From a virus, in IMG/VR virus record IMGVR_UViG_3300038451_000147, positions 41,336 through 105,335 of that record: a DNA stretch of 64,000 nt. One strand, written 5' to 3'. The first letter of the stretch is position 1. Every line of letters begins with the position of its first letter. Below, one piece after another: positions 3,638 to 47,327 of the stretch. The notes beneath the pieces were generated by a model. That model searched no databases. It saw nothing but the letters and a program-made list of their open reading frames with translations, and was not told where the DNA came from. The translations under genes and the position numbers were made by a program.

Positions 3638-3675
3638 GAATGCTTATTAAGCACACAACCTATATAAACATTGCA

Positions 3676-5229
3676 ATGAGTAGTTCCAATGAGCGTCTTC
3701 TGAAGAGTCTGGAACAGGAGTTCGACAAAATTAAGGCGAAGGAACCCAAAGACGTTACTCTAGACCTCAGTGACCCTATGACATTTGTTGAGAACTACGT
3801 CAAACTTCCAGAGAAAGCTCCACCAGAGCAGAAGACTTGGTTCGAGCAACGGCCTTGGCTTTCAGAAATCTACAGAGATGGGAACAAGAGAATTGTTATA
3901 GTGAAGGGCCGACAGATGGAAGTCTCCGAGTATGCCGTGAATATGCTGTTCTATTGGGCCGCAAAATGGCCGGGGAAGTATATCTACGCCTCTTCGTCAG
4001 GTGACAAGGCAGATGTCTTCAGCCATGACCGCTACCAGAAGCAACTCTCTCGAAGCCCTACGCTCCAAGCCCTTGTGCGAGACGAAGCCGTTAGAAGGGT
4101 GCAATATGCGAAGTCCGAAGTCTACTTTATGACAGCCTATGAAGACACCAAGACTCTGAGAAGCATTGACGCTGATGGCATCATCCTTGATGAGTTCCAA
4201 GACTACAGGGCCAACGCCATCCCCATCGCTGAAGAGGGTCTGGCTCACAGTCAACTCAAGAGGCTTTGGGTGATAGGAACTCCCTATCTCACAGGAACCA
4301 ACTTCTCTAGTAAGTGGGACGAAAGCACAAAGAAGGAGTGGAACAAAGAGAAACAGATGTGGGAAGTAACCAACCCTAAGTCAGATGGGATGTGGCAAGG
4401 CTATCACATCAGTCAGGAGATGGCAGTAGGGGTATGGCTTACCCCAGAGGAGTTCGAGTATAGGAGAGCACACAAGCCAGCACAGGAGTTTGCGAATGAG
4501 TGTCTAGGATTATTCTATGCTGGACTCGGAAGACCGACAGACTACGGTTACATGAGTTCACTCTTCAGCCCGTCTTTAATGAAGGGCCAATTCGGAAAGG
4601 GTGAACTTCTGATTTCGGGTATAGATTGGGGTATCTCCAAGTCTAATACGGTCTTCTACTTGATTCGACCAAGACTTCTAGAGTTGCCAGACCTCTATAC
4701 AATAGACACTCTTTATGTTGAAAAGGTAGACAATCCAGATATAACCAAACAGATTGCAAGAATCGCGCAACTCCTCACTACCTTTCCCACTGTAATCAAT
4801 GTGCTAGACTACGGCACTGGTTTCGTGCAAAATCAGGAACTCTACAAACAGTTCGGAAACCGAGTGATACAGATAGAATTAGGCAGTGGAAAACTAGGCA
4901 AGCCCATAACGGTAGAGCAAACCGCCTTTGGCCCGATAGCCAAAGTCAACAGAACGTGGGCTATAGACACGGCTATGGATTACGTCACTAGACCAGACAG
5001 ATTCAGATTTTACAACGAGACAGACAAAGGCACAAAGGACTGGATTATCAGAGACTTTTTGGCTGAATACCCTGAAACGAGCAAAACCACCGAAAAGAAG
5101 ATTTGGATTCACAGTTCCGATGCCACAGACGACTGCCTCATCGCCTTCGTGAATGCTATGATTGGCTTCCAACTTCAGAAGTCGGCTAGTATGCCGGAGC
5201 GCGTGGAAGATATGATTAGTTTCGTGTGA
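3676..5229 (+). CDS. terL: Terminase large subunit
   Basis: Walker A-like KGRQMEVSE, Walker B IILDEFQD, motif III IGTP, nuclease GIDWG and C-terminal DDCLIA; start moved to ATG 3676 (24 nt after TTATTAA). Confidence 0.9.
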   Translation: MSSSNERLLKSLEQEFDKIKAKEPKDVTLDLSDPMTFVENYVKLPEKAPPEQKTWFEQRPWLSEIYRDGNKRIVIVKGRQMEVSEYAVNMLFYWAAKWPGKYIYASSSGDKADVFSHDRYQKQLSRSPTLQALVRDEAVRRVQYAKSEVYFMTAYEDTKTLRSIDADGIILDEFQDYRANAIPIAEEGLAHSQLKRLWVIGTPYLTGTNFSSKWDESTKKEWNKEKQMWEVTNPKSDGMWQGYHISQEMAVGVWLTPEEFEYRRAHKPAQEFANECLGLFYAGLGRPTDYGYMSSLFSPSLMKGQFGKGELLISGIDWGISKSNTVFYLIRPRLLELPDLYTIDTLYVEKVDNPDITKQIARIAQLLTTFPTVINVLDYGTGFVQNQELYKQFGNRVIQIELGSGKLGKPITVEQTAFGPIAKVNRTWAIDTAMDYVTRPDRFRFYNETDKGTKDWIIRDFLAEYPETSKTTEKKIWIHSSDATDDCLIAFVNAMIGFQLQKSASMPERVEDMISFV

Positions 5230-32657: not shown

Positions 32658-33338
32658 CTAAGTGCAGGTTATCGTATAGGTCACAGCCACCGTTCCGCTT
32701 GCGCTTACAACGTATCCTGTTGCGCCATTGGTCTGGTCGTGGGCAAGCAGGTAAATGTTGCTATCGAAAGTCCCGTAAATTCCGATGTTGCCCCAAGTCT
32801 CGTTGCCAGCAGTGCTGTTCGTCATAGTTCCTACAATCAGGAATGTAGTCGTGCTCGATGAAGTCGAATTGATGGTTCCATCAGCAGTCGCGGTTCCAAT
32901 GTGCGTTGGAGTCACAGCCCCATCTGCTCCTGCAAGTTGGGTTTCGATTGCTCGGTCTGTCCCGGCGTTTGGCGCGGTCACACCACTTCCAGCGACTATC
33001 TGAATAGCACTACCAACTTTATCTGCCGCCATCGTGTGAGTCGCGTTGGATGTATCGTAAACCATAGCCGTGACGATTGCTGTGTGAAGCATAGCCGACA
33101 TAATGATAGCACAGAAGTTCTTGGTGGACAGGTCGTGCTCCTGATAGGAGTGGTTTGACATCACTTTGGGACAGTCACACTGAGGGACTATCCTTCGTCT
33201 CTCGATGTGGAAGAAAGGCCAACGGGCTTGTTTCACAACTAGAGTCTTAGTCTGAGTCTTATCTGGAGTCTGGTGAATCGGGCAAGGCTCGAAAACCTTG
33301 ATGTCCAGACCAATGTGCATACCACCTATTCCTGACAT
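32658..33338 (-). CDS. Virion structural protein (fibre/baseplate-associated)
   Basis: Thr/Ala/Gly-rich, GSG.TAP...D..IET, terminal VTYTI strand. Confidence 0.55.
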   Translation of the reverse strand: MSGIGGMHIGLDIKVFEPCPIHQTPDKTQTKTLVVKQARWPFFHIERRRIVPQCDCPKVMSNHSYQEHDLSTKNFCAIIMSAMLHTAIVTAMVYDTSNATHTMAADKVGSAIQIVAGSGVTAPNAGTDRAIETQLAGADGAVTPTHIGTATADGTINSTSSSTTTFLIVGTMTNSTAGNETWGNIGIYGTFDSNIYLLAHDQTNGATGYVVSASGTVAVTYTITCT

Positions 33339-33391
33339 ATCTAAGTATTAGTAGGATTCGGGAGTATTTAAGGCTTGCTGACTAAGGTTGT

Positions 33392-34054
33392 CTAGTATTG
33401 CGTAATGTTCAGCGTTAGTATCCAGAGTTGGCCAGCACCCTTCAGTCCTTCATCCTGCACATATCTGTCCATGAGAAGGATGTTCACGTTATCATAACTG
33501 GTGACAACAGAACCGGGGCCATCAGCCGCATCGTTGTCAACTCCGAAGGTTGTCCACTCCCATTCAGCAATACCAGTCGGGAAGGACGCTTCCCATGTGA
33601 TTGTGTCTCCTATAGTCGCGTTGGTAGTAATCTGTGGATAGGTTGGGTCTATGGTTTGCATATAGAGATTCGTGGCTCCGCCAATAGGATTCAGGACAGT
33701 TACGCTTGTGTCGAAAGGAGAAGATGGGTCGTCTGAGACTCCAAGCCTTGAATTGGTGTTATTGAAGTAGAGACCACCACTACCAATTACAAAGCCCCAT
33801 CCAAGCGGCTTGTAGTCGTCGAGCAGACTGTTTGGCCCAATCACGGTCTTTTTGATTAGTTTGTGATGGAACTTTGTCATGGCTTCTCCAACAGAATGCC
33901 CCTCTTTCTTCCAGTTGTAAATTGCGTTATCTGGGTCTTTGAAACGGGCGATTGTGAATGTGGCCCTTCTAGGATTGGAAAGCATCAATTCTCTTGCTAT
34001 CTGTGGAGTCATTACTATCGGCCTTTTAACTACTTCTGGAACTGCGGTGGCCAT
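33392..34054 (-). CDS. Virion structural protein
   Basis: LGV, TYPQI, ASF..G.A.WEW..FGV.N, G.K...W.L pattern seen in tailed-virus structural proteins. Confidence 0.55.
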   Translation of the reverse strand: MATAVPEVVKRPIVMTPQIARELMLSNPRRATFTIARFKDPDNAIYNWKKEGHSVGEAMTKFHHKLIKKTVIGPNSLLDDYKPLGWGFVIGSGGLYFNNTNSRLGVSDDPSSPFDTSVTVLNPIGGATNLYMQTIDPTYPQITTNATIGDTITWEASFPTGIAEWEWTTFGVDNDAADGPGSVVTSYDNVNILLMDRYVQDEGLKGAGQLWILTLNITQY

Positions 34055-34087
34055 TCTAATGTATAGATGGTAGCAGTAGTATTTAAG

Positions 34088-34150
34088 CCCTTCGGCTGAA
34101 GGGATTTAAAAACGTGGGAAGGGGTAGCCCACTAAAGGCGGCTACGCCCT
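34088..34150 (-). terminator. GC hairpin plus T-tract after the MCP gene
   Basis: Minus strand GGGCGTAGCC...GGCTACCCC then GTTTTT; second hairpin CCCTTC/GAAGGG. Confidence 0.45.
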
Positions 34151-34208
34151 GCTTTCAGTTAACTCTCCGAAGGGAGTGTGTTGTATGGTTGGCTTCTAGT
34201 GAAAGACT

Positions 34209-35144
34209 CTACGAAGACCGCAAGTCGGTCATCTTCACAATACTTTCTGGGTATGTGATGACGGGCGCGTATCTTGCAGTAATCACAGTGTCTATCGAGT
34301 CGAAAGTCGGTTGCGGCCAAACATCTACGCTGATGGGTCTCTTAGTCGCAAAGTAGCCCAACGGGGCGTATGCGGCTGAGTAGTTGCTACCTGAAGCGGC
34401 AAGGATGTAAGCCCTACCACTGTTGGCAGTTCCATCAGTCAGAGGGATGTTCGGGGTGACTATCCGCTTAAGTCCATACAGCGCAGGGGCGGAAACGACT
34501 GTTCCCTGTCCCTGTTGGTATACGGGCTGTCCGAAGAAGAGTAGTGCGGCAAACTGCGGAATCCTAGCCAAGTCCTGATTCGCCATTGGATTCATCGCAA
34601 TGGTGTCAGGTTCCAGCATGAAGTTCTGGATGACTTGGATGCCGTTTGTTATGTCGTTAACTCCTATCGTGTTAGCGAATGTTCCGGGCGTTCCATCCAT
34701 GAACACTGAAGTTCCAGTGACACCGTAGGTGGTTTGAGCACCTGCGTTGAGAGCCTTCTCAACGTCTTGGTCAATCGTCATGACCACTCGTCTCGCGGCT
34801 CTTTTCAACTGGTCTTCTACTATGTTCACTATCTGGTCTTCAATCAACTCTCTGGTAACTCGGACTCTCATACCCACCTTGTAAGGTGTAACGGTAATCG
34901 AGTCGTAAGGTGTGAAGTCGGCCATTATCTCGGCCCCTTCCGCAGTCTTTCCTATAACTGCGTTGGCGCGAGCACCCTTTTGTTTCGGAATGGTGGCTGT
35001 TGAACCAACCTTGATGAAGAAGTCCTGAAGTAGAGGCTTCAATGCCAGATTGGGCATCGTAAGTTCTACTATCCTCTTCGCCAGTGCTGGATAGAACAGA
35101 GCACCAGTGTTAACTATCGGGAACTGCTCTCTTGTCATTGCCAT
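34209..35144 (-). CDS. Major capsid protein, HK97 fold
   Basis: AEGAEI, TPYKVG..V.VTRELIED, IDQD, PDTIAMNP, LYGL; follows protease-scaffold-cement. Confidence 0.9.
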   Translation of the reverse strand: MAMTREQFPIVNTGALFYPALAKRIVELTMPNLALKPLLQDFFIKVGSTATIPKQKGARANAVIGKTAEGAEIMADFTPYDSITVTPYKVGMRVRVTRELIEDQIVNIVEDQLKRAARRVVMTIDQDVEKALNAGAQTTYGVTGTSVFMDGTPGTFANTIGVNDITNGIQVIQNFMLEPDTIAMNPMANQDLARIPQFAALLFFGQPVYQQGQGTVVSAPALYGLKRIVTPNIPLTDGTANSGRAYILAASGSNYSAAYAPLGYFATKRPISVDVWPQPTFDSIDTVITARYAPVITYPESIVKMTDLRSS

Positions 35145-35163
35145 TCTAACTCACTTGTAGTGT

Positions 35164-35628
35164 CTAGAACAGAAGGGCAACAATGGATTGAGGAGTGCTT
35201 GTCACAGTGCATCCCTGAAGGGCGATGAGCCTTGCGTTTAGTTGGCCAGTTGCCGTATCCGCAACCGCAACCATCCCATCGTGTCCAGTGGTGTCTGATG
35301 TGTCAAGGAATTGCCCCGGCGTAACTGTGGTATCGCATATCACAGTCACTTCACCACGACAAATGACATCAATTGCACTCTGAAGTTGCCCAGATGTCTG
35401 AGCGACTCCAAGAATGAACTTGAGTTCTGCGCCTTCCCCTGCTACGGGAACGACACAGGTAAAGTCATTGTCGGTTGCCAGAGTAACTATTGCTCCTACA
35501 TATACATTCGTGCCGCTTGCATTCGCCTCACTATTGAAGGTGAGAAGGAACGAGTCGTTGTGGAAGGGTGCGCCTTCAAGCAGTCCGGGGATTGAACTTC
35601 CGTGTAGATAAGGTGGCCCGAAAGCCAT
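35164..35628 (-). CDS. Capsid cement/decoration protein
   Basis: ILGVAQ, IDVICRGEV, VTPGQFL; between scaffold and MCP. Confidence 0.7.
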   Translation of the reverse strand: MAFGPPYLHGSSIPGLLEGAPFHNDSFLLTFNSEANASGTNVYVGAIVTLATDNDFTCVVPVAGEGAELKFILGVAQTSGQLQSAIDVICRGEVTVICDTTVTPGQFLDTSDTTGHDGMVAVADTATGQLNARLIALQGCTVTSTPQSIVALLF

Positions 35629-35638
35629 TGTCTATTAC

Positions 35639-36163
35639 CTACCCTGAGAGTAGTCCCAGACTCTTGAACTTATCGGAAGCACTCATGAGTTCCTTGAACT
35701 CAGGTGGGATTTCGGTAGAGATACCCATAGCGGCAAGAGCACTGTTCTCTTCTTTTACCTCACCGACATTGCCCTTTCCATTGGCAGTGTTGGCAGGTGC
35801 AGAAGCAGTGGCCTCTTTCCGTTTCTTGGCCTCTTCCTCAACCTTAGACCGGACTTCCTGAAGCCTAGACTTCAGTTCTTCCAGTTTCTTCCGCTTTGTG
35901 GCTTCCTCTTCCTCTTTCTTGCGCTTCGCCTCTTCGTCCTCTTCAACCTTGCGGTTAGATGCCCGTCTCAGAGCAATCCTCTGGCTCAGTAGGGCTTGCC
36001 TCTTGCGAAGCGAGTCTTGCTGTTCCAGTTTCACATTGACCTCTTTGATTATGGACATCAGACCATCAAGTTTGGATTCGAGAGCACCGAATTGCTTCAC
36101 AACTTGGTCATAAGACAAAGTTTTGCCTTCGCTTATTTCACCAGAAGGTGCGACAGTAGCCAT
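35639..36163 (-). CDS. Scaffolding protein
   Basis: Charged coiled coil, linker, C-terminal amphipathic helix; synteny. Confidence 0.75.
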   Translation of the reverse strand: MATVAPSGEISEGKTLSYDQVVKQFGALESKLDGLMSIIKEVNVKLEQQDSLRKRQALLSQRIALRRASNRKVEEDEEAKRKKEEEEATKRKKLEELKSRLQEVRSKVEEEAKKRKEATASAPANTANGKGNVGEVKEENSALAAMGISTEIPPEFKELMSASDKFKSLGLLSG

Positions 36164-36249
36164 TTAGTTTCTTGATTTCTGGGGTGACGTTACATTTACC
36201 AATCGGCCAACTACACACCCATATAGAGTAGAAGGTGTCATAAGTGGAG

Positions 36250-36275
36250 TATATATGGTATACCCCTTATTTAAA
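36250..36275 (-). promoter_or_regulatory. Capsid-operon promoter with GGTATACC palindrome between TATA and predicted TSS
   Basis: TATA 36268-36275; ATATATGGTATACCC (36251-36265) repeated exactly at 50764-50778. Confidence 0.55.
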
Positions 36276-36284
36276 GCCTTCGCC

Positions 36285-37820
36285 TCAGTTCCCGAACATA
36301 TCGGGTGTTTCATCGCGTCCAATGACATCGAGATAGGTTTCCTCATCAACCATCTGTCCACAGCCACAGGGACACTTATACTGCTCCTTGGGTTCAGCCT
36401 CTTCTTGTCGTCCCTCTTTCGGAACCTCACCAGAACCACCACAGGTTTCACAATCGGCACCACTGATAGGGAACCGTCCTATTCCTGTGCAATCGGGACA
36501 CCAATCCATCCCCTCATGTGGTTTTATCCTCAACTTCTGCAAAACTCCTTCCTCTTTCCCTGCCTCTTCATAAACCAAGCAAGGGCAATCTGCCGCGCCC
36601 GGAAAATAGGACGTAGGCGCATGACAACCATCTTCTTGATGATACCCTCTCACATGACTGCATACACACTTGCCCTCTTCCTTCTTATCTTTCTCTCCAC
36701 CTTTCTCCACCAGTGGGAAGTCCTCTAGTGAGCCGCCTTTGGCCTCTTCAGTCTTTGCTCCACACATTTCGCAATCACCACAACGACAAGAAGAAGGACA
36801 ATTGCATCCGAAATTTTGACAACTTACACCACCCCATGTCTCATCTTCCTCTTCCTTTGGTTCATCCACTGGTTGCCCTAGAGATTTCATAAAGGCTTCT
36901 TCTTCGGGAGAAAAGCCATACTCCTCTATAGGCTTGTCTAAATCCAAGTCTCTCGCCTTTTGGCTGTATCTAATCTCAACTCGGTCTTCTGGATAGCCTT
37001 CCAAGGCCATTTTTGCCATCCTAAGTTGCATCTCAACCACTTCAGCAGTGACCATTCTGACTGCATTCATGGCCTCAAAGAGCATGGGTGTGAAGTTTGG
37101 AAGCACGATTTTAGCCGCCTTTGGCACTGGTTTGACCGTTGGCGGTGCTACTTTAGGCTCATAACGCGCCCTTAGAGCATAGTCAAGACTGGCTTTGAAT
37201 CCAAATGGAGTGATGTCAGCGTGTTCATAGGCAGGTATAGCTATGATAGACTGCTCCAAAGCCGCAGGTCGGCGTATCAACATATTCAAACTGCCGCATC
37301 TTGGGCAGGGAAGGTCAAGGTCTTCGATAGCGGCTTCCTGTTCGGACTTGCCTTGAGCGGTCATACAGTCATCACAATAGGCATTCGGGACAGCAATCTG
37401 GATGCTATTGTGCTTGATATAACCCAAAAGTATCTTCTGAATGATGTTTTCGTCACAAGTTTCACCCTTCCAGAAGACTTTTCCAGCCGTTGGGTCGTTC
37501 TTGTCTGGCTCTACCCATGCCTCTTCGACCTTCCCGATGATAGAATCAACGTGGTCTATGTCGTGGTCTTTCATCAGAGGGAGTCCCTTAAGTTGGTCAG
37601 CGATGGCTTGAAGGTCTTCTAGAGGCACTCTCCACTTGTTCCGGTTCCGAGAAGTGTCAATGGCCATACCACCAAGACCCAGAATGTGTGGAAAAGCACT
37701 TGGCCCTTCCTTCTTGTAGTTGTCAATGAGTTCAGCGTATCGCTTGGTCGTAACTAGGGGTGCGAGACCAGAACTATACTTGAAAGTCAGCCCCTTTCGG
37801 TCTGAAGGTATCGGAACCAT
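36285..37820 (-). CDS. Prohead protease with long Cys-rich C-terminal extension
   Basis: NRN, PLMKDH, IIGKV, NSI, EQSIIAIPAY. Confidence 0.8.
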   Translation of the reverse strand: MVPIPSDRKGLTFKYSSGLAPLVTTKRYAELIDNYKKEGPSAFPHILGLGGMAIDTSRNRNKWRVPLEDLQAIADQLKGLPLMKDHDIDHVDSIIGKVEEAWVEPDKNDPTAGKVFWKGETCDENIIQKILLGYIKHNSIQIAVPNAYCDDCMTAQGKSEQEAAIEDLDLPCPRCGSLNMLIRRPAALEQSIIAIPAYEHADITPFGFKASLDYALRARYEPKVAPPTVKPVPKAAKIVLPNFTPMLFEAMNAVRMVTAEVVEMQLRMAKMALEGYPEDRVEIRYSQKARDLDLDKPIEEYGFSPEEEAFMKSLGQPVDEPKEEEDETWGGVSCQNFGCNCPSSCRCGDCEMCGAKTEEAKGGSLEDFPLVEKGGEKDKKEEGKCVCSHVRGYHQEDGCHAPTSYFPGAADCPCLVYEEAGKEEGVLQKLRIKPHEGMDWCPDCTGIGRFPISGADCETCGGSGEVPKEGRQEEAEPKEQYKCPCGCGQMVDEETYLDVIGRDETPDMFGN

Positions 37821-44374: not shown

Positions 44375-45388
44375 TTAGGACTCGTAGAGTGGGATGTAGT
44401 AGTCCTGTCCCGGCGCACGAACCTTTATCCTACCAATGATACCACCAGTAAGAGTGGTCAAGGGTTGGAGCCATGTTCCAGCACTTCCATCGTCCAAGTC
44501 AAACAGATAGGTGGCTTTGACTGATGCAATCTCGAATACCGAGTCAATCACTGCTGTCGCATTGCTTGCCAGTAGCACCAGACTGAATCCACCCGCAGTC
44601 ACTCCTGATGTGTAGGCTGTGAAGTCGTTCTGTATCCAAAGGCCATGCATCCTTCCACCAGTGATTAATGTTGGATTGGTGTTGCCCACCTGTCCGTAAA
44701 GTGCCGCCGTCCAAGTAGAGTCACCTAGAGTCCCTGCGATGTCAATCCTTCCTTGGATACCAACGATGTAAGAGGTTCCGCTAGAAGTTGAACCTGCACC
44801 CAAGGTTGCCTTTCCTCTTATTCCAAAGACACTAGCCGCCATACTTGCGGCTGTCGTTGTAGCCTCAACCCAGAATGCCCTGTAACTTCCAGTGGCTCCC
44901 GGCGTTGTGACTATACATTGCAGAACGTAATCAATAGAAGCGGAATTGGAGAAACTCTGTCTGGCTGACCATACTTGTTCTGTTCCAATTGCGGCAAGGG
45001 TGTCGCTGGACGTTATTGGGAGAGCAAGAGTATTGCTACCACTGCCAGTAAGTCCAGAATTGAGAGTTGTGCTACCCGAACTTGTTCCTTTCAGAAGGAA
45101 GTCGGTCTTGGTAAACGATTGTGCGGCAGTCCAAGTCTGCGCGAAGCCTAGAAGAGCAAACGTGCCAGCGTTATTGGGAAAGGTGAAGGTCTTGGCAGTC
45201 GTGACACCCGAAGCATCCAGAGTTGCGTTCTCTATCGAGAACGTAGGGCCAGACGAACCACCACCAGAATCGGAAACTGTTCCAGTTACAACAAGATTCC
45301 CACCAAGATGATATGCTACACTATGACTAGGACTGTCATAACCAACCTCAAAACCATCTTCAACTTCCTTGATACCAGAGTCGGTCAA
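44375..45388 (-). CDS. Tail spike/fibre protein
   Basis: T.TFP...GT.AL...QTW repeats, beta-helix-like middle, C-terminal YYIPLY. Confidence 0.65.
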   Translation of the reverse strand: MTDSGIKEVEDGFEVGYDSPSHSVAYHLGGNLVVTGTVSDSGGGSSGPTFSIENATLDASGVTTAKTFTFPNNAGTFALLGFAQTWTAAQSFTKTDFLLKGTSSGSTTLNSGLTGSGSNTLALPITSSDTLAAIGTEQVWSARQSFSNSASIDYVLQCIVTTPGATGSYRAFWVEATTTAASMAASVFGIRGKATLGAGSTSSGTSYIVGIQGRIDIAGTLGDSTWTAALYGQVGNTNPTLITGGRMHGLWIQNDFTAYTSGVTAGGFSLVLLASNATAVIDSVFEIASVKATYLFDLDDGSAGTWLQPLTTLTGGIIGRIKVRAPGQDYYIPLYES

Positions 45389-45416: not shown

Positions 45417-45821
45417 TTAAGGTTGTCTATATTCAGATAGTTCGCCAGCCTTCCTACCAGAAGGAACGCGAGAAGCGGCTAGAGGCGCAAGAGTGGTGGC
45501 CAATTCGTTTACTGCGACTCCGACTTCCTGAAGTTTGGTCATAAGAGCCGTGTCCTTCTTGACGTTTGCCATCGTTATAAGCATGGCTATGGCCGTCTGA
45601 AGAGCCTTGGTATTGTTGATGGCAAGGTCTATCTTCTTTTCCTCTATCATCATCTTTATCTGCTCAATCCTCTTTTTGAAAACCTCTATAGGGTCTTCTG
45701 GTGTGAAGTTCATAGGTTGTATCGTTGTTGGATGATATGTTGGAACAGGATTTATCCCTTCCTCTTCTATGAGGACGACTGTTCCCCGCCCTTGCTCGTC
45801 ATGAAATACCTCTTGTGCCAT
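45417..45821 (-). CDS. Hypothetical helical protein
   Basis: TATA ~45844-45850. Confidence 0.5.
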   Translation of the reverse strand: MAQEVFHDEQGRGTVVLIEEEGINPVPTYHPTTIQPMNFTPEDPIEVFKKRIEQIKMMIEEKKIDLAINNTKALQTAIAMLITMANVKKDTALMTKLQEVGVAVNELATTLAPLAASRVPSGRKAGELSEYRQP

Positions 45822-45973: not shown

Positions 45974-46188
45974 TGAAGGAGTAGTCTAAGGGAAGTAGGC
46001 GTTATAAGTGTTCCTATTGATAAAGGTCTGTCAGCCGAAAATTATCAGAGCGATTCCGAAAATCACCCGAAGTGCTCTCCCTACTTGCCAGTAGTTGTTG
46101 TCTGCAACTCCGCCACCATACAGATACCAATAGATTAGGTTGGCTCCGCCCTCTAGTGCAAAGAAAGAACCTATTCCCTTGACCCAAA

Positions 46189-47100
46189 TCAAATCCTACA
46201 CCGTGTTATAGCCTCTGGATAGGTGATGATAGGAGCGTATTTTGCTGTGATGACAATATCGAGTGAGTCGAACACTGGTGAGGGCCAGACATCTATGCTG
46301 ATTGGACGCTTGGTGACGAAGTAACCAATAGGAGTGTAGCAGTTGTCGAAACCCGTCTGAACTACATAAGCCGTCTTCGGTGAAATCTCCGAACTTCTCA
46401 GAATGTGGAAGTCTTTCAACTCTAAGAAACCATAATACGGATTCACTCTATCGTTCATGAGGATGGCATATCCTGAGGCTTTGGATTTGGGTATACTTGT
46501 AGTAACATCGAAAAGGTCAGGATACCTGAAGGGCCAGAAGGAGAATCTCTTTTTGGTGGTCATATCGAAAAGAGATGCAACATCTGAATCTATTGTCTTT
46601 GCGGTTCTTTGTGCGGCTCTTCTGAATGCACTTTCTACAATGGTGATGAGACCATCTTCAAACACTTCTCTGCCGATTCGGACTCTCATACCCACCCTAT
46701 AGGGTGTTACAGTGACAGTTCCATATGGTGCGAAGTCCCTATTGATTGCATTTCCGCTTGCTGTTCTACCTACTGTAGCAGTAGTCGGCTCTCCTTTCTG
46801 TTTAGGAAAAGTGGCTGATGCACCAATATGAATCTTGAAATCTGTAAGGATTCGCTGTATCTCTAGTTTCGGCATTATGAGTTCTACGAAGCGTTTCGTC
46901 AGTTCAGGATAGAACAGGGCAGGAGAGCCGGGAGTCGGAGACGATGCTGGCACATCTGGCTTACCACAAAGATACCCAGACTTTTGGAATCTGCTCATAG
47001 CCCACATCAGTTCGCCCCAATAGGCTGGAAAGGCTGGCTCCTCTTCTTTGTGCGGGTATCCCTCTGCTGGATGTGGTTCTGCTACCATAAGAAACACCAA
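46189..47100 (-). CDS. Second capsid protein, paralogue of MCP 34209..35144
   Basis: ALFYP.L.KR.VEL.MP.L, PKQKG, VTPY.VGMRVR and GYF.TKRPIS.DVWP.P.FDS.D.VITA.YAP.ITYPE shared with MCP. Confidence 0.9.
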   Translation of the reverse strand: MVFLMVAEPHPAEGYPHKEEEPAFPAYWGELMWAMSRFQKSGYLCGKPDVPASSPTPGSPALFYPELTKRFVELIMPKLEIQRILTDFKIHIGASATFPKQKGEPTTATVGRTASGNAINRDFAPYGTVTVTPYRVGMRVRIGREVFEDGLITIVESAFRRAAQRTAKTIDSDVASLFDMTTKKRFSFWPFRYPDLFDVTTSIPKSKASGYAILMNDRVNPYYGFLELKDFHILRSSEISPKTAYVVQTGFDNCYTPIGYFVTKRPISIDVWPSPVFDSLDIVITAKYAPIITYPEAITRCRI

Positions 47101-47327
47101 ACAATGTTAGGGTCAATGTAGTTAGGGTCAATGTAGAAAGGCGGGTAGTAAGGCTGTGGCGGATAGTAGGGTTCTGGCCAGTAAGGATGCTCATCAGGAA
47201 CTAGGATGTATCCGACTCCATTACAAGCGTGACAGGTCTTTTCATAAGGTGCGGTTGTCGAACCTTCACTTAAGTCGTTTGGAATCTTTCCTTTCCCTTT
47301 GCAAACAGGACACAGTTCGGAGTGCAT
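47082..47327 (-). CDS. DnaJ-type Zn finger plus Pro/Tyr-rich small protein
   Basis: CPVCKGKG...CHACNGVG; TATA ~47350-47357. Confidence 0.6.
   Translation of the reverse strand: MHSELCPVCKGKGKIPNDLSEGSTTAPYEKTCHACNGVGYILVPDEHPYWPEPYYPPQPYYPPFYIDPNYIDPNIVWCFLW

Follow-up and report, generated by a model that had tools for sequence, protein, structure and literature searches.

A second capsid gene and its scaffold-like N-terminus

The window analysed here, the whole stretch of 64,000 nucleotides, comprises bases 41336-105335 of the 105,335-bp IMG/VR virus record IMGVR_UViG_3300038451_000147, which has direct terminal repeats and is rated complete. It carries two genes for capsid proteins with the HK97 fold. 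One encodes the major capsid protein (MCP; 311 amino acids, 34209-35144, minus strand), which belongs to the HK97 family (PF25209, score 39.3, and PF05065, score 32.8, both above the cut-offs), has no N-terminal extension and lies in a capsid operon on the minus strand. The other, P0001 (46189-47088, minus strand, with its stop codon at 46189-46191), encodes a protein of 299 amino acids that we call the paralogue. It has a shortened A-domain and, close to its N-terminus, a segment of 22 residues (the tag) resembling the C-terminal end of the scaffold protein that is encoded in the operon.

The paralogue gene is 11,045 bases from the capsid operon. The initial annotation of this region had proposed that its product is a paralogue of the MCP encoded 11 kb away, and BLASTP bears this out, with 37% identity over 298 columns (E = 3e-63) and 52 gap columns in the middle of the protein. 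The annotation also described the N- and C-terminal blocks as near-identical and the middle as short and divergent. In our alignment of the paralogue with the MCP (A1), the blocks are well conserved but not near-identical: 63/122 residues (52%) are the same from the N-arm to the spine helix (residues 57-178), and 33/54 (61%) in the C-terminal strands of the P-domain (residues 246-299). The middle is as described. It is the A-domain (residues 179-245; 46354-46554, minus strand), in which only 9/59 residues (15%) are identical and 67 residues stand opposite 114 in the MCP, making it 47 residues shorter.

An AlphaFold2 model of the paralogue has a compact HK97 fold (pLDDT 83, pTM 0.78). A Foldseek search of the PDB with this model found HK97 gp5, phage NF5/small-phage MCPs, and encapsulins, all at a probability of 1.00 and with E-values between 1e-9 and 1e-8. 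Compared with the model of the MCP, the paralogue is predicted to lack the beta-hairpin insert (MCP residues 138-155) that comes after the spine helix, as well as the helices and loop at MCP residues 186-222, so that a minimal A-domain is left. The score against PF25209 is 17.4 bits, under the cut-off of 27, and there were no matches in NCBIfam or PHROGs, nor any in a PDB sequence search with a profile of the paralogue; because the family-model scores are below the cut-off, membership of the HK97 family rests on the paralogy and the fold. A protein of 178 amino acids, P0016, is another reduced derivative in the MCP-like family, having the N-arm, E-loop, spine helix and P-domain strands and entirely lacking an A-domain.

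Database searches identified seven further full-length members of the paralogue family (P0002-P0006, P0009 and P0010; 39-64% identity). They share motifs that are absent from MCPs (KK..W.P.RYP, CY.P.GY and YPEAI.R.R). In a phylogenetic tree, the paralogues form a single clade (support 100) nested within the clade of the nearest MCPs, with a long stem (0.65) and with tips 5-10 times longer than those of the MCPs. This nesting points to a duplication within this virus lineage, after which one copy changed fast, and we take the paralogue to be a duplicate of the lineage's own HK97-fold MCP.

The tag, PAYWGELMWAMSRFQKSGYLCG, occupies residues 21-42 of the paralogue (46963-47028, minus strand) and consists of a predicted helix (residues 22-36; pLDDT about 80-92 in the AlphaFold2 model) followed by a G-Y-L hook. 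A low-confidence linker rich in proline and serine (residues 43-56; 46921-46962, minus strand) connects it to the N-arm. The scaffold itself (174 amino acids; 35639-36163, minus strand) has a coiled-coil body rich in Glu and Lys and ends in a helix and hook of the same kind, PPEFKELMSASDKFKSLGLLSG (35642-35707, minus strand). The initial annotation had reported an ungapped match of 22 residues between these two segments, 9 of them identical, and suggested that it be assessed by shuffling. We recover the same match, with a BLOSUM62 score of 38, a score that was reached in 3-9 of 5000 trials when single sequences were shuffled.

If only this pair is considered, chance or amino acid composition might account for the similarity, because the match is just 9/22, the shuffle test is modest, and many pairs could have been scanned before this one was noticed. 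Much stronger evidence comes from profiles. The scaffolds of ten relatives end in P.Y(W/F).E(I/L)..AS..F(K/Q)..GLL(S/T)G. A profile made from nine scaffold C-termini of other viruses, excluding the window's own, was searched against the 1486 six-frame open reading frames (ORFs) of the window, and it found the window's scaffold (E = 8e-9) and the N-terminus of the paralogue (E = 2.7e-6), the following match having an E-value of 3.1. We also ran a reciprocal test on the whole 105-kb genome (2433 ORFs), using profiles restricted to the core of the motif. A profile of scaffolds only found the paralogue at E = 3.7e-5, and a profile of paralogues only, made from six foreign tags, found the scaffold at E = 5e-5, with the background starting at E-values of 1.9-4.4. 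Independent profiles working in both directions thus pick, out of 2433 ORFs, the same three proteins (the third is described below), separated from the background by four to five orders of magnitude. Furthermore, the tag matches some foreign scaffolds better than the window's own–for example, 11/22 residues are identical with the scaffold of L020, by a count made by eye–and the similarity stops precisely at the scaffold's C-terminus. A chance resemblance is hardly credible in the face of these results, and by these profile comparisons the tag is a homologue of the scaffold tail. A search with the last 40 residues of the scaffold matched scaffolds only.

In two genomes the tag and the tail share a sequence variant: ELM in the present one and EI.GA in G003. 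Concerted evolution of the two segments within a genome was considered, but we do not claim it, the match between genomes (10/22) being equal to the match within the genome (9/22) in a comparison with two informative pairs only. We also set aside the idea that the KEE motif upstream of both segments, to which the initial annotation had drawn attention, is a protease site; the motif is present upstream of both in this genome but is not conserved in the paralogue family, being absent from P0005, P0009 and P0010.

The tag would lie outside the protein if translation began downstream of it, as the annotation had allowed. The TAG stop codon of the upstream gene and the ATG at 47088 overlap (ATGGTAG), the latter has a GGTG 8 nt upstream, and in four relatives there is a stop codon two codons ahead of a GTG at the equivalent position. 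The extension is therefore within the ORF and the start is not downstream of the motif. Alternative starts exist at TTG 47100 and GTG 47097, and the ATG at 47088 is the likely start codon, rather than TTG 47100.

The third protein with this tail is encoded outside the window. It is a Zn-ribbon protein of 97 amino acids (CSSCG..CEYCG; G000:C1:5539-5832, plus strand, equivalent to L040:1540-1833) that ends in FAELIRASNKFKSLGLLSG and was detected by searching the whole genome with a combined tag profile. Its tail is identical to the scaffold tail at 15 of the 19 final residues, yet at only 37 of 66 bases, and the tail is kept in its homologues P0118 and P0119 (44-45% identity). Because the residues are shared and the bases have diverged, we consider the peptide to be held by selection and not to be a recent copy. 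The same is relevant to the origin of the paralogue. The initial annotation had envisaged duplication of a scaffold-cement-MCP segment followed by loss of the cement gene, but we see no nucleotide trace of such an event–the tag and the scaffold tail share 31 of 66 bases–and the tail is also present on the unrelated Zn-ribbon protein. Since a protein of this kind carries it, the peptide appears to be portable and could arrive by any recombination, and in these sequences it acts like a movable module, attached to three proteins whose bodies are unrelated. This suggests that it is an address tag for the capsid interior, and that the Zn-ribbon protein is possibly loaded into the capsid. The consensus P.(Y/F)(W/F).E(L/I)..A...F...G(L/Y/F)L is thus a candidate for a short conserved contact motif between scaffold and coat in this archaeal tailed-virus family.

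Conservation of the paralogue and its possible role in the shell

The tag is near the N-terminus in all seven of the other full-length family members except P0006, which is recorded as starting inside it. In an alignment (A5) of eight paralogues, comprising P0001-P0005, P0009, P0010 and a near-identical copy from L014, residues P21, E26, F34 and G38 of the tag are invariant. (P0009 and P0010 were not found among the viral contigs searched.) The extension ahead of the N-arm measures 20-56 amino acids plus the linker, and the linker varies from none to about 45 amino acids across relatives by indels that never break the reading frame. P0010 is nearly without a linker, which places its tag beside its own N-arm. 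The ratio of nonsynonymous to synonymous substitution rates (dN/dS) among relatives, a test that the initial annotation had put forward, is 0.19-0.33 for the whole gene and 0.27-0.48 for the tag, which indicates purifying selection, as compared with 0.9-1.4 for the linker. These data support the view that the tag extension is translated and is under purifying selection.

The explanation that we favour, and hold tentatively as something short of probable, is that the paralogue is a minor subunit of the shell, probably forming a penton-type capsomer, and that it is recruited by means of its built-in scaffold tag. The site where the tag binds, the incorporation of the protein into the shell, and its position at the pentons are what we infer from the genes. 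The duplicate retained the floor of the fold, made up of the N-arm helix, the base of the E-loop, the spine helix and the P-domain strands, which are the parts that touch neighbouring capsomers, while the A-domain, which packs around the axis of the capsomer, shrank and was rewritten. The N-terminus, which points inward in HK97-type proteins, acquired an amphipathic helix and a G-L-L hook. According to this explanation, the tag may attach to the inside of the MCP, or of the paralogue, alongside the conserved N-arm helix, in the way that the helix and hook of the phage 80alpha scaffold do; because 12 of the 17 residues of the N-arm helix are identical in the MCP and the paralogue, either could offer the docking site. 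The paralogue would enter the growing procapsid bearing its own scaffold contact, and would there assemble into a distinct kind of capsomer, one whose A-domains are small; as with T4 gp24 and SaPIbov5 Ccm, these capsomers would most probably be the pentons. The protein would be useful without being indispensable, since in viruses that have lost the gene the MCP can presumably take over.

We also considered a broader proposal, which seems to us doubtful, in which the peptide is a label of general use, addressing the scaffold, a Zn-ribbon cargo protein and the shell paralogue to the capsid interior. The paralogue would be a self-scaffolding subunit that makes pentons or sets curvature, and its presence, allele or loss would tune the geometry of the capsid. 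If true, this would be a natural counterpart, internal to one virus, of encapsulin cargo loading and of size redirection by satellites. The tag could also be a tool for loading proteins into such capsids.

Several observations weigh against a role for the paralogue in the shell. First, its rate of evolution is 5-10 times that of the MCP: the protein is 64% identical in G001, G002 and G006, genomes whose MCP is 99% identical, and whose scaffold is 100% identical, to those of the window. Second, the gene is mosaic, with 83-95% identity to its G006 counterpart in the first 250 bases and 35-70% in the middle; a fast, mosaic pattern of this sort is more usual for genes involved in conflict than for shell proteins. 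Third, there are truncated copies. Residues 1-108 are missing from L035, and residues 1-135 from L038/L039; in these metagenome contigs, which come from three samples and whose remnants are near-identical to each other, the 5' part of the gene has been replaced together with the upstream zinc-finger gene. P0011 has undergone an internal deletion that leaves the frame intact, and P0013, of 121 amino acids, is a C-terminal form. The tag is absent from L035, L038/L039 and P0013, and only its first half is present in P0011. Fourth, no copy of the paralogue was found in G004 (94 kb, 68% complete), whose MCP is 66% identical. Fifth, the hook is internal in the paralogue but at a free C-terminus in the scaffold and the Zn-ribbon protein, so the mode of binding may differ. 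Lastly, the operon partners of the gene–a zinc-finger protein, a small membrane-like protein and a helical protein–offer no structural clue, and the virus is uncultivated.

We also predicted the complex of the MCP with residues 1-48 of the paralogue. It scored 0.44, when the best of three controls scored 0.01. In calibration, 58 of 80 solved complexes attained the mark and so did 2 of 110 mismatched pairs, and the range at or below 0.60 held only 7 of the 80 solved complexes together with both of the passing mismatches. The runs agreed in at least 74% of contacts, with a pLDDT of at least 57 for the partner. The prediction thus gives weak backing for binding of the tag to the MCP, and returned no interface.

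The tempo and mosaicism of the gene would suit a different function, as a competitor or modifier of assembly. The tag and the MCP-like floor would compete with the scaffold for the MCP, and the effect would be to alter the size or shape of the capsid, or to poison particle assembly in co-infecting related viruses. The tag is common to the scaffold and the paralogue, and CpmB competes with the scaffold in exactly this manner in 80alpha/SaPI1, while Ccm, a homologue of a capsid protein, redirects capsid shape. The gene is fast-evolving, mosaic and repeatedly lost; between this genome (G000) and G006, the tag and N-arm have 89% base identity and the middle has 35-70%, and the scaffolds of the two are identical. 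However, the gene has a conserved location and belongs to the virus itself rather than to a satellite, and the virus's own near-identical MCP would be affected too. Moreover, the overall dN/dS of 0.19-0.33 is that of purifying and not of diversifying selection. We regard a competitor as rather unlikely.

The truncated copies raise the further question of whether the paralogue is a decaying duplicate, a redundant copy of the MCP that is heading for loss and whose tag is a functionless relic. The initial annotation had named absence or decay in close relatives as evidence against its proposal, and such cases exist, in the several independent truncated copies and in G004. In addition, N212, which is otherwise invariant, is changed in the L035 and L038 remnants, and the branches of the paralogues in the tree are long. 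Yet at least seven lineages have intact ORFs of 268-307 amino acids, which are as little as 39% identical and share 56 invariant columns, and the proteins have conserved motifs of their own that are absent from the MCPs. The dN/dS of the gene and of the tag is well below the value of about 1 seen in the linker, and even the indels in the linker always keep the frame. Decay is an improbable explanation for this pattern. From its fast evolution, mosaicism, truncations and absence in G004, we instead judge the gene to be an accessory one, which is kept under selection in many lineages yet can be lost. Intact, truncated and absent alleles that occur beside near-identical MCP and scaffold genes are a natural experiment on how capsomers specialise after duplication and on whether this is reversible.

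A last alternative is that the paralogue is packaged cargo or an internal protein, located outside the shell lattice, with the tag acting only as an address label for the interior of the procapsid. The Zn-ribbon protein is hardly a shell protein and carries the same tail, so the tag loads proteins other than shell subunits too if it loads anything, and the truncated forms that lack the N-arm and E-loop retain open frames. But conservation of the paralogue is highest in the N-arm, P-domain and C-terminal strands, which form the lattice and would be of no use to mere cargo, and the forms with no tag (L035, L038/L039 and P0013) or half a tag (P0011) could not be loaded in this way. We see little chance that the paralogue is cargo.

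The capsid operon and neighbouring genes

The capsid operon encodes, in order, a protease-like protein, the scaffold, a cement-like protein and the MCP. The first (36285-37820, minus strand; 511 amino acids) resembles prohead proteases by a weak family match and has a Cys-rich tail, with two CxxCxGxG motifs (CPDCTGIG and CETCGGSG) near its C-terminal end. In the 94-kb relative G004 it is fused to the scaffold: at L025:8042-9529, the protease-like domain and a scaffold with its tail form a single open frame of 496 codons, resembling the arrangement in herpesviruses and in lambda C/Nu3. The third gene (35164-35628, minus strand) encodes a cement or minor capsid protein, with a weak XM1 gp53-like match below the Pfam cut-off. 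A search of PDB sequences with the scaffold gave no matches.

Comparison of G000 (33187-36276) with G006 (L027:16904-20000) shows 100% base identity in the scaffold and cement genes and 96.8% in the MCP gene, and 65-85% in the flanking genes. Identical scaffold and cement genes amid diverged flanks point to a recent exchange of the capsid cassette between these genomes. Seven IMG/VR contigs of 2.1-2.3 kb (L018-L024) each consist of exactly scaffold, cement and MCP, and these might be assembled transcripts of a late capsid operon.

Elsewhere in the window there are genes for the large subunit of terminase (3640-5229) and for a ribosomal protein uS2 of the archaeal/eukaryotic type (TIGR01012, E = 1.7e-34 but below the cut-off). 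The host is probably an archaeon, because of genome content that includes this uS2. A profile search of contigs from reference genomes with alignment A1, as a clue to the host, found no relatives.

Immediately upstream of the paralogue is a gene for a protein of 81 amino acids with two CxxCxGxG (DnaJ-type) zinc-finger motifs (47082-47327, minus strand). It is the gene whose stop codon overlaps the ATG of the paralogue, to which it is translationally coupled, and the one lost with the 5' end of the paralogue in L035; its product also has PYYPP-type repeats. Downstream, an ORF for a hydrophobic protein of 53 amino acids with two transmembrane-like segments (46031-46192, minus strand) overlaps the stop codon of the paralogue. 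It is kept in L035/L038 despite the truncation of the paralogue there, and is absent from the equivalent place in G003. The next gene (45417-45821, minus strand) encodes a helical protein of 134 amino acids, for which we found no family, and its place downstream of the paralogue is conserved throughout the relatives seen. Its counterpart in G003 (L026:13286-13741, minus strand) overlaps the end of the paralogue gene and has a Zn-ribbon tail, and the size range of the proteins is 134-151 amino acids. Beyond it, at 44375-45388 (minus strand), is a gene for a fibre-like protein of 337 amino acids rich in Gly, Ser and Thr. The first 80-140 residues of this protein are 38-79% identical between relatives and the remainder cannot be aligned, a pattern of conserved front and variable rest that is seen in receptor-binding fibres.

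Comparison with known capsid systems

The closest parallel to the division of labour that we propose is in phage T4, where gp24, a paralogue of the MCP gp23 with the HK97 fold, forms the pentons (PMC13185644). As here, there is a second HK97-fold capsid gene in the same genome, shorter than the MCP, and in T4 the two divide the work into hexons and pentons. The systems differ in that gp24 has no copy of a scaffold tail, and no PHROG or Pfam match links it to the paralogue. The paralogue also evolves much faster than its own MCP, and its penton position is a proposal based on the genes. gp24 can be bypassed by mutations in gp23 and is missing in some T4-like phages, which would parallel the dispensability of the paralogue.

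For the tag, there is a precedent in the scaffold of phage 80alpha and the protein CpmB of its satellite SaPI1, whose common helix and hook attach next to the capsid protein's N-arm helix (PMC5644958). In both cases a short amphipathic helix and hook from the end of a scaffold is found on a second, unrelated protein, and here it occurs on the scaffold, the Zn-ribbon protein and the paralogue. The hook is RIIK in 80alpha and G-L-L-S-G here. The second carrier there belongs to a satellite, whereas here all the carriers are in a single virus genome, and one of them is a paralogue of the capsid protein, in which the tag is N-terminal and precedes a linker, and for which binding is weakly predicted.

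A scaffold-like part on a capsid protein is known from Ccm of SaPIbov5, a capsid-protein homologue that co-assembles with hexamers of the helper's capsid protein, fills the pentamers and sets the shape of the capsid (PMC8569155). Ccm and the paralogue are alike in being HK97-type capsid-protein homologues with their own N-terminal scaffold-like part. In Ccm, the product of a satellite gene, this part is a complete delta domain of about 87 residues, which is removed by cleavage; the paralogue has just a tag of 22 amino acids and a linker, is the virus's own gene, and coexists with a separate scaffold gene. The delta domain of HK97 gp5 likewise puts scaffold function on the inward-pointing N-terminus of an HK97-fold protein. 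However, it has about 100 residues and replaces a separate scaffold gene, whereas in this virus the paralogue has the coat-binding tail only, the main MCP is unextended and the scaffold, of 174 amino acids, has a gene of its own.

Encapsulins, which rank high among the structural matches to the compact paralogue, use cargo-loading peptides, or in archaea N-terminal cargo fusions, and there too a short terminal peptide addresses proteins to the interior of an HK97-fold shell. We found no sequence similarity between the tag and encapsulin peptides. The context here is also viral, with terminase, protease, scaffold and cement genes, and the tagged protein is itself shell-like.

In our literature searches, which covered archaeal and other tailed viruses, we did not find an MCP paralogue that carries the coat-binding tail of a scaffold in cis in the virus's own genome. 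The individual ingredients all have precedents, and it is for their combination–a virus-encoded MCP paralogue, an N-terminal scaffold tail and a third tagged protein–that we did not find one in the literature searched. Second capsid proteins such as T4 gp24 and Ccm, and shared scaffold tails such as those of the 80alpha scaffold and CpmB, are each known, and the paralogue links these two principles.

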